Positions 41,686-44,600 of a stretch of DNA of 64,000 nt are shown piece after piece. A program made the position numbers. The stretch lies in NCBI RefSeq assembly GCF_003018115.1, contig NZ_CP027457.1; one strand, given 5' to 3'. This stretch comes from Escherichia coli (GTDB taxonomy: Bacteria; Pseudomonadota; Gammaproteobacteria; Enterobacterales; Enterobacteriaceae). Numbering within the stretch: the first letter of the stretch is position 1; each line of letters starts with the position of its first letter.

Positions 41686-44600
41686 TCAGCAACAGCGCAC
41701 ACCAGGTGGCGCTCATGCCGGAACGTCGCCAGCGAAACAGACGGTGATGAAAACCGTAATAATGCATCAGACGACCAGCAAGCAAAACGATGCCGCAAAT
41801 ATGCACCATCCAGGTTTCTGCGCCATTCATTTCCATAAACAGCATCAGCACAATCGCGATGGGAATATATTCCACCGCGTTACCATGAATGCGAATAGCG
41901 CTTTGCAGTTCGCTAAAACCGCCGTCGCCATAGGCAACGCGGTACTGCATTCGCAGGCGAACGACATCAAAAGAGAACTTCATTAATAACAACGCACCTA
42001 AAACGGCATACAGCGCGCTTACCATACAAACTCCCTTTAAAATGGCCGATGGCACCTGTCTATGATAGGTGGCAAATTCAGAAAAGAGAAGATTGCTGTG
42101 GAATAGCCGGAACTGCTCCGATCTCTGGAAGCATTTTACGTAAGTCTTCCCACAGGGTATGTACCAGTTCCGGGGCCTGGGCAATATCTGGCGTATGTAA
42201 AAAAAGATAAGGCGTAGTGGTCTGATGCCACTGCGCTAATTTTTGTAACCAGACCTGAAATAATTCCCGGTTTTGCGTCATATCATCACTACCGATAAAA
42301 CGGATCAGCGGATTTGTCGCCGTCAGTACAGCATGTACCGGAACTTTAGGTTTTTTTCGTTGAGCGTCGCGAATAGCTTCACTGTGTGGACGTGCTGCAT
42401 GAACCGGGCGGCTGTCTAAAATCACCCGATTAACGCCGCGCTGATGTAAACCGCGATTAAGCGTTTGTTCCTCTTCCCCTTTGGCGAAAAACTGTGGATG
42501 GCGGACTTCCACACCATAATTAAATTCGCCAGGGAGAGAATCGAGAAAATGCCAAAGCGCAGGCAGCTCCCGTGGGCCGAATGTGGCAGGCAGTTGCAGC
42601 CAGTATTGCCCAATGCGCGGAGCCAACGGTGACATGCGGGTCAAAAATTCAGTCACTAAATCATCGCAATGTCGTAATGCTGCCTGATGCGAAATGGTCG
42701 CCGGAAACTTAAAACAGAAGCGGAAGTCATCTGTGGTCTGTTCACGCCAGCGCAGGACAACCTCGGGTTTCGGCAGGGCGTAAAGCGTGGTGTTGCCCTC
42801 CACGCAGTTAATGTGACGGCAACTACCATTAAAATAACTGATATTTAAAGATATTATTTCAGAGTCTGGCTCTATGGGGCATGTATGGGACACTCTCTGT
42901 CAACTGCTTATTGAGTAGTTCTATTTGCCCGATATTGTTATCTTCCATCCATGCACCGTAAACGTTGAATACCATTTGTGCATTTGCATGGCCCATTTGG
43001 TTTGCTATGAAGCTTGGATTCGCTCCTGCCGATAATGCCCAGCAGGCATAAGTATGCCTAGACTGATAGGTTTTTCTGTGCCGCAGTCCTGCTCGCCTTA
43101 ATGCAGATGCCCAGGAATCTCTGATGGAATCTGCTTTATAGTGGTGGCCGACGTGCTGGCATTTTTTCACCAGTTGCGGATTAAAAACAAACGTGCATTC
43201 ATGGTTTGTGCTGCGTCCGAACTCCCGCAGTTTGACATCAATTTGATATTGCTGGTCAAACCTTGTCATTTCAGCCTGGCTTTTCAGGGCATCAACAGCT
43301 GGTTGAACAAGATGAATAACACGATCAGTTCCCGCCTCTGTTTTTGGTAGAGTGAACTCCCCGAGTTTTGTATAATTACGACGGATAGTCATTGTTTTAG
43401 CTTTTAAATCAATATCCTCCCAGGCGAGAGCTATTAGCTCACCGTGACGAATGCCTGTGTATACTGCTAAGGACCACAGGTTTTTCGTTTGTTGATGGTG
43501 ACAGGCATCAATAAAGCGAATAAATTCGTCACGCGTGAGCGGATCTGGCTCTGTTCTTGATCTCTTTAATGGTGTCAGCCCGTTAAATGGGTTTGACCCG
43601 ATATAGCCGTTATCAGCAGCAAATTGAAACATTCCTGCAATTGTCGTCATGTAGTAATTAACCGTAACTACCGATCTCCCTTTAACCGGCGTTGTTTTTC
43701 CATTAGAGAGATTATGATACCCGGTTAACAAATCTTTCCTGATAAACAGTAAATCTTCCTTTGTTACAGACGAAGCAAGACGTTTTTCCCCTATGCGAGG
43801 AAGCATGTTTCTCACCACGGATTGATACCGACTGAATGCATTGCTTCCTATCTCTATTTTCTTAAGGTCCAGCCATTTTTCCGAAAGTGCCTTAACTGTT
43901 ATCTCTCTTTTCCCCAAGCCAAAGTGTTTCAGGTTAGGGGAATTAGGGAACTGCGCGGCGTAGTCGAAACTCCCCATTCTGATTGCAAAACAAACGGAAG
44001 TGCGAAGTTCACCTGCGATCTTCCGGTTTTTGGCGGTGTCAGGAACACCGAGGTTTTCTCTGACACGTTTGCCGTTATAGTGAAACCATATGCGGAGTGA
44101 TCCGCCATGGTTTTCAACGCCTGTCGGGTATGATGCGTTACTCATTAAACCTCCCAGACGTCCAGGAGCATTAACAGGTTAACCGGAACTTGCATTTTTG
44201 GCACCTGGTTGTTTCTGGTTTTCGATCCATCGCATAATTTCTTCGATGTTGTACAGGCATTCACTGTAGTGCCCCGGATCACCTTCTACAGCGTAATGGC
44301 GGTATTCTTTTCCCTGCATCCATGACTTTCTTCTTGCCCGCTCAATGGTGCCAGGCTTTAGCCCTGTTGATGCAATGAGGACTCTCTCCGTACACCATTT
44401 GCTGGGGGTTATCTGATAGATGATTGTCTGCATGCCAACCTCATAAAATTTTCATCCACAGCAGTGGCACCACACGTCAAACATTCGTTTCACAACTTCA
44501 CGGCAGTAGAAACCGTCAACATCTCGCGTCAGGTCATAGCGATTGCCGTAACGCTGGCGTACCCATAGCTCAAACGCTTTATTCATTCTTTACTTCCTTT

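Follow-up and report, generated by a model that had tools for sequence, protein, structure and literature searches.

The gene yecE is a common insertion site of stx phages (PMC3491183), and both this role and the type of host-prophage junction described below are already known and documented. In the GenBank entry of phage 297 (EH297; AJ431361), yecE is listed as 'partial due to integration of bacteriophage 297'. The yecE prophages described from O145:H28 (Nakamura et al. 2021, PMC8112680; LC567819-LC567842) comprise Stx1a, Stx2a and Stx2d as well as non-Stx prophages; integration and excision activity was reported there for related phages, the focus of that work being secondary attB copies within other prophages and not the yecE remnant. 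Among 5426 complete E. coli genomes, a related integrase was found to abut yecE in 425 (~8%), and 99 of these 425 genomes carried the phi297-type junction, as detected with a 141-bp probe. The int-xis-yecE junction of phi297 was reportedly described by De Greve et al. in 2002, and the junction sequence has been available from GenBank since the work on this phage.

The DNA analysed here, referred to as the window, is a stretch of 64,000 nucleotides from E. coli (NCBI RefSeq assembly GCF_003018115.1, contig NZ_CP027457.1). Compared with phi297, positions 42700-44500 have 96% identity over 1.8 kb, and core position, gene order (xis-int-core-yecE') and GTG-started frame agree; a few SNPs fall into phage codons (e.g. 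Y20/N22 here, C/S in phi297), and stx1a is carried here, whereas phi297 carries stx2. The likeness to the O145:H28 yecE prophages comprises the integrase (96.4-96.7% nucleotide identity), the att site, with the 11-bp exact core inside it, and the lambdoid architecture.

With phage lambda, the locus shares a tyrosine integrase with an arm-binding domain, encoded next to attP, and an Xis upstream of int. A short identical overlap, inverted core-type sites and phased repeats on both arms are likewise common to both, those at yecE being candidates by sequence. Unlike lambda, whose target is intergenic, the phage at yecE lies within a protein-coding gene; its arm repeat TGYCCCATW is unrelated to the repeats of lambda, and the arms are laid out differently, with a tandem triplet on the int-distal arm and a pair on the int-proximal arm.

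In the case of e14 in icd, and of phages that target tRNA genes or ssrA, the displaced segment has a homologous counterpart on the phage, and the product remains essentially unchanged. As in this type, insertion at yecE occurred within the gene, phage DNA replaces the displaced end and a continuous ORF results; unlike in this type, the replacement matches only 5 of ~28 residues and is devoid of the conserved motif. Since it lacks homology to the displaced YecE segment, yecE is not rebuilt. That the phage arm might be a decayed duplicate of the 5' end of yecE, in the style of e14 and icd, was rejected, because the host/phage nucleotide similarity is limited to ~20 bp of imperfect att beside the core, accompanied by five scattered residues.

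The prophage and its att core

Judged by gene content and by comparison of the att sites, positions 42078-42893 (minus strand) are the int-proximal host-prophage junction of an Stx1a prophage. On the host side, cmoB (39878-40849) and cmoA (40846-41589), identified as ORFs and from the annotation of near-identical genomes, are accompanied by yecN (MAPEG; 41630-42025), the nearest intact host gene downstream of the yecE' remnant; cmoB, cmoA, yecN and yecE' are located downstream of torZ and all lie on the minus strand, torZ being on the plus strand. On the phage side, a tyrosine integrase of the phi297 type (428 aa; 42859-44145, minus strand) was assigned by Pfam domains (Arm-DNA-bind_2, PF12167, 84.4 bits; Phage_integrase, PF00589, 68.6 bits at a cut-off of 27.1), by its PHROG match (PHROG 1 integrase, E = 1.7e-81) and by nucleotide identity. 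The excisionase gene (84 aa; 44179-44433, minus strand) was recognised by PHROG 539 (E = 1.6e-37) and is annotated as xisR in a near-identical genome. Approximately 15 kb further into the prophage, stx1A (58166-59113, plus strand; NCBIfam Stx1a subunit A, 728.9 bits at a cut-off of 718) and stx1B (59123-59392, plus strand; 89-aa ORF) were located together with a nanS-p-like esterase ORF. The order in the near-identical prophage is Q - stx1AB - nanS-p - holin, with stx between the Q antiterminator and the lysis genes. By these matches, the inserted element is an Stx1a-converting lambdoid prophage whose integrase and excisionase are of the phi297 type. Positions 40000-47000 gave no Rfam match at E ≤ 1.

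The closest prophages (99.8% identity) are those of the O178:H19 strain 2012C-4431 and of the calf strain W24, and in 99.8%-identical lysogens a complete 48-kb lambdoid Stx1a prophage lies between yecE' and 'yecE-yecD. When a second core with its flank was sought within the window, a single occurrence was found, and the far junction was placed beyond base 64000; its sequence was taken from a 99.8%-identical genome (NZ_CP024289), standing in for that of the present strain. At this far end, a 96-bp yecE 5' fragment adjoins yecD and aspS.

The exact att core (TTAACTGCGTG, 11 bp; 42801-42811, minus strand) is common to attB and both prophage junctions, which read CGCCACT TTAACTGCGTG GAGGGC for attB of K-12, CGTCACA TTAACTGCGTG GAGGGC for the int-side junction in the window and CGCCACT TTAACTGCGTG ACGCAAC for the far junction of the 99.8%-identical lysogen. 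DNA identity to K-12 W3110 starts at TTAACTGCGTG, and nothing upstream of it is alignable. Because the divergence begins exactly at the core common to attB and both junctions, the breakpoint is the att core, and the proposal of the earlier note that the break in homology marks the core is borne out by this three-way comparison. The 19-bp att core in the phi297 record AJ431361 corresponds to window positions 42801-42819, mismatches between the sites being tolerated. For the O145:H28 yecE phages, a 21-bp att ('duplication due to insertion'; PMC8112680) corresponds to 42799-42819, again with mismatches tolerated. The int-side junction is attL by the lambda convention and is named attR in the phi297 GenBank record.

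Candidate core-type half-sites were placed at 42803-42817 (minus strand) as read from the alignments, with the junction sequence CGTCAC-ATTAACTGC-GTGGAG. In attP as reconstructed, CGTCAC-ATTAACTGC-GTGACG, they form a perfect 6-bp inverted repeat with a 9-bp spacer, and attB has an imperfect inverted repeat, CGCCAC-N9-GTGGAG. Following the lambda paradigm, this would be the layout expected of core-type Int sites that flank an overlap region.

Two tandem repeats, TGTCCCATA (42892-42884) and TGCCCCATA (42881-42873), occupy 42873-42892 on the minus strand, 11 bp apart, and TGYCCCATW has no other match in the 64-kb window. In the near-identical prophage, the distal arm has this motif three times in tandem (L003 48311-48341), 115-155 bp from the core, and the distal-arm and int-proximal repeats agree in their 11-bp phase and in orientation. 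Within the 50-kb near-identical prophage locus, five of the six matches fall in the two att-arm arrays, and the repeats are still recognisable in two divergent phages (genomes PEC240, 027_SK3). This distribution suggests that the repeats are candidate arm-type Int-binding sites of the attP arms, with TGTCCCATACATGCCCCATA as the candidate arm-type stretch of the int-proximal arm.

The arrangement is best explained by site-specific integration of a tyrosine-recombinase phage into codons 29-32 of yecE, strand exchange inside the 11-bp TTAACTGCGTG having cut the gene in two. The 5' 32 codons remain beside yecD at the far junction, outside the window, and the 3' 243 codons are joined to the int-proximal arm of attP, which consists of the int 3' end in another frame, the two candidate arm repeats and an AT-rich spacer. 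This arm is, by accident, open for 27 codons and supplies a GTG, giving a 271-codon chimeric ORF, and precise excision by Int/Xis would yield an intact yecE with the sequence CGCCACTTTAACTGCGTGGAGGGC regained.

The chimeric frame and the segment it replaces

The chimeric yecE' ORF (42078-42893, minus strand) consists of 271 uninterrupted codons counted from GTG and overlaps the integrase gene (42859-44145) by the last 35 nt of int, in agreement with the earlier note, which had described a 271-codon chimeric frame across the int 3' end. Codons 1-25 are phage-derived, the phage bases in the ORF numbering 82 and forming the int-proximal arm of attP, and residues 30-272 of YecE are encoded by codons 29-271. 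In the alignment to K-12, residues 1-26 of YecE (MIYIGLPQWSHPKWVRLGITSLEEYA) are swapped for 25 unrelated residues (MSHTCPIEPDSEIISLNISYFNGSC), R27 and H28 are retained and F29 is changed to I; the proposed replacement of ~26 codons at the start of yecE by phage DNA was thus confirmed, and an intact yecE N-terminus, which had been named as the observation that would speak against it, did not appear on re-alignment. From residue 29 onwards, the chimera is YecE and departs from the K-12 protein once (Met254 of the ORF is Thr255 in K-12).

What did not hold was the in-frame ATG postulated at the beginning of the chimera. The frame starts with GTG (42893-42891), preceded by an in-frame TGA at 42902-42900, 9 nt upstream; the nearby ATG (42882-42880) encodes a methionine of the integrase frame (...VPYMPHRARL-stop), 1 base off the yecE frame, and the earliest in-frame ATG of the yecE' ORF is codon 87. 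For the chimeric frame, SHTCPIEPDSEIISLNISYFNGSCR is predicted as the N-terminal (tryptic) peptide. Searches with the chimera gave 157.2 bits for Pfam DUF72 (PF01904; residues 25-248, curated cut-off 25.3) and 493 bits for NCBIfam PRK10302 (residues 17-271, curated cut-off 412). On near-identical DNA (NZ_CP024289), PGAP calls a 265-aa 'DUF72 domain-containing protein' from a non-canonical ATA start (window position 42875), not labelled as a pseudogene.

The swapped host segment belongs to the most conserved portions of YecE, as seen from 21 orthologues in Enterobacteriaceae (75-83% identity): the residues G5, L6, P7, Q8, W9, H11, K13 and W14 are invariant, as are R16, L17, G18, I19, L22, Y25, A26 and R27; this comparison covers close Enterobacteriaceae orthologues and 1VPY, the Pfam model extending over wild-type residues 21-249 only. 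Residue 1 of YecE is already included in the alignment with EF0366, a DUF72 protein of solved structure (1VPY; MIRLGLTSFS, MIYIGLPQWS in YecE). Of YecE residues 1-26, the chimera matches P7, L17 and I19 only, i.e. 3 of the 15 invariant residues within this segment (P, L, I); R27 and H28 are kept within the imperfect att homology beside the core. DUF72 proteins are TIM barrels with a fold related to UV-damage endonuclease (PMC11791011), this likeness, with no function assigned, being all that a literature search on DUF72 function retrieved. Replacement of the first structural elements of the barrel would be expected to destabilise YecE. AlphaFold2 models of wild type and chimera, based on a shallow alignment of 21-23 sequences with at least 75% identity, both had pLDDT values below 50 over the first ~40 residues.

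Start signals, chance and competing readings

We consider it highly probable that the locus is a prophage junction at yecE and that the chimeric ORF is an accidental, most likely unexpressed or non-functional remnant. The remnant is most likely dead because the ATG and the coupling to yecD were lost, the frame is separated from yecD and from any promoter ahead of it, and a near-invariant 26-residue segment was replaced; from this we infer that the chimera is neither expressed nor functional.

The start of wild-type yecE overlaps the yecD stop (ATGA) and its own SD is weak (-2.9 kcal/mol), so that wild-type yecE probably relies on being coupled to yecD; lysogeny puts yecD ~48 kb from yecE' (as measured in the near-identical genome), and the ATGA coupling is gone. 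Anti-SD duplex energies of -2.9 kcal/mol for the GTG and -2.5 kcal/mol for the ATA are at background level, 43% of the positions in the region scoring at least as well as the GTG site, compared with -10.9 for int, -7.9 for yecN and -6.9 kcal/mol for yecD; weak translation from the GTG is conceivable. As the GTG is located 32 nt ahead of the int stop, termination-reinitiation coupling to int is unlikely. The GTG abuts the first of the two repeats and the ATA chosen by PGAP is the last triplet of the second; since the candidate starts are parts of the candidate arm repeats and of the int coding sequence, these are the likelier constraints on the start triplets.

A consensus scan of 41500-44600 for sigma-70-like promoters on the minus strand detected none, the scan being insensitive, as it also detected none for yecN and cmoA; in the same scan, no convincing terminator was found between int and yecE', with counts at the level of shuffled sequences. 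With int upstream on the same strand and no predicted terminator, read-through over yecE' is possible, especially after induction. In lambdoid phages, int transcription is normally silenced by lysogenic repression.

As a random-fusion control, every position on both strands of the window's phage DNA was fused to the downstream frame. Of these fusions, 57% had an in-frame ATG, GTG or TTG ahead of the first stop and 28% an extension of at least 25 codons, so that an open, start-bearing extension is no more than chance gives. phi297 and one O145:H28 yecE phage have the GTG-started frame as well, despite SNPs. In PEC240 and 027_SK3, a related 437-aa integrase lies at the same core (90-93% nucleotide identity over the query), and no canonical start was found in the phage arm upstream of the core of these two junctions; the longest ORF with a canonical start is 241 aa, from the core GTG, and PGAP (locus 2752) starts 16 codons upstream of this first canonical start to give 257 aa, with an ATT as start codon by reading of the aligned sequence. 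As the extension is missing in the phages with the 437-aa integrase, it is a trait of one lineage, the phi297 type, and not of yecE-targeting phages generally.

The chimera could instead be a real gene, expressed from the GTG or ATA on int read-through and encoding a YecE variant that keeps or alters DUF72 activity. The uninterrupted 271 codons, a co-oriented int from which no predicted terminator separates them, scores above the family cut-offs (PF01904, PRK10302), the CDS call by PGAP and the GTG frame kept in phi297 and an O145:H28 yecE phage are in keeping with such a gene; it is nevertheless very unlikely, as the GTG or ATA has a background-level SD and both starts sit on tandem candidate Int-site repeats, the extension is not kept in the 437-aa-integrase phages and is equalled or exceeded in 28% of random fusions, some 16 invariant residues have been lost from the N-terminus, and lysogenic repression normally silences lambdoid int. 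A maintained or expressed chimera is thus not supported by conservation, chance, the ribosome-binding site or the lost segment. With an internal start at the core GTG (42803, 241 aa) or at Met87, an N-truncated YecE would be made and the phage codons would be irrelevant. The GTG at 42803 is host-derived, is found in every lysogen and, at the PEC240 and 027_SK3 junctions, precedes all other canonical starts; yet duplex energies of +1.2 kcal/mol upstream of it and +0.4 kcal/mol upstream of Met87 amount to no SD, no promoter is predicted and the product would be devoid of the whole conserved N-terminal segment, which makes truncated YecE extremely unlikely.

We give next to no credence to the divergent 5' end being a naturally occurring allele of yecE or the result of a local rearrangement, a reading for which nothing speaks except the open frame. 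The divergence falls exactly at a core of which a 48-kb prophage has a second copy at its far end, where the missing 32 yecE codons were found beside yecD; the DNA upstream belongs to an integrase gene and forms its 3' end, and ~5000 genomes that lack the insertion have a K-12-type 5' end. The prophage map with its far junction and the three-way att comparison refute this reading.

Neighbouring genes and annotation

The prophage at yecE separates yecE', yecN, cmoA and cmoB from the region upstream of yecD and puts them directly downstream of int, on the same strand and with no terminator predicted between. It is conceivable, though very unlikely, that lysogeny lowers yecN, cmoA and cmoB and thereby cmo5U tRNA modification, and that induction, by read-through from pL and int, raises them and yields the chimeric YecE'. 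If true, host tRNA modification would be tied to the life cycle of the phage, at a site that is occupied in ~8% of complete E. coli genomes. Nothing in the analysis suggests an effect of the insertion on yecN-cmoA-cmoB, and a literature search on the yecE/cmoA operon structure retrieved no papers. We know of no function or phenotype of YecE, and its disruption is therefore without known consequence.

The chimeric frame is a probable pseudogene that is kept in annotation through non-canonical starts, and the 'DUF72 domain-containing protein' that the pipeline reports (265 aa from ATA, 257 aa from ATT) should be taken as a gene remnant and not as a yecE allele. For typing, the junction marks yecE as occupied by an Stx1a phage, the occupancy of yecE being a standard STEC typing locus.

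Repeats at the attachment site and the far prophage end

Tandem TGYCCCATW repeats in 11-bp phase were located on both att arms, with two copies on the int-proximal arm (window 42873-42892, minus strand) and three on the distal arm, the latter read from the near-identical prophage of NZ_CP024289 (locus L003, 48311-48341). Judged from their sequence and arrangement, they are probably arm-type sites bound by the integrase of the type found in the Stx phage phi297; no earlier description of these att-arm repeats was found in the literature searched.

The far junction, read in NZ_CP024289, lies beyond the window; there, the yecE 5' end that the prophage displaced (L003 48456-48566) still overlaps the yecD stop and would encode a 36-aa peptide, consisting of 32 native residues followed by TQHF, with the stop codon in phage DNA. 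Two features lie immediately within this distal prophage end (L003 47876-48230), namely an incomplete ykgJ-like fragment and a dinI-like gene. This arrangement is reminiscent of 'attB-in-PP_2', a ykgJ-ecpE-derived secondary attachment site (PMC8112680).

Database annotation of yecE remnants and fusions

The yecE remnants were entered by RefSeq/PGAP as complete 'DUF72 domain-containing protein' CDSs, not as pseudogenes, likely because the PRK10302 equivalog cut-off is still exceeded. Their annotated starts are apparently non-canonical, reading as ATA in NZ_CP024289 (L001 3479-4276) and, in the aligned sequence, as ATT at the junctions of PEC240 and 027_SK3 (L004 and L005, each 1979-2752).

The protein database also contains 'YecE-YecN' fusion proteins of 420-421 aa with DUF72 and MAPEG domains (P0001, P0002, P0004, P0005 and P0007), one cluster of which comprises 550 members. 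These look like artefacts and are probably gene calls running past the yecE TGA stop, for instance under a wrong genetic code.

Shiga-toxin operon and differences between genomes

The stx1A/stx1B operon (window 58166-59392; subtype Stx1a according to NCBIfam) is intact, and the source strain is therefore a Shiga-toxin producer; a nanS-p-like SASA esterase of 645 aa follows (59896-61833). The nearest relatives, at 99.8%, are calf strain W24 and O178:H19 strain 2012C-4431.

In some genomes, homology to the junction-region query ends elsewhere within yecE, at query positions 825 (H29, NZ_CP059125) and 566 (H30, NZ_CP193497), so that further insertions or rearrangements break yecE at different points. 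The DUF4222/PHROG 285 gene is intact in the window (44590-44892, minus strand) and annotated as frameshifted in the NZ_CP024289 prophage, which is otherwise 99.8% identical.
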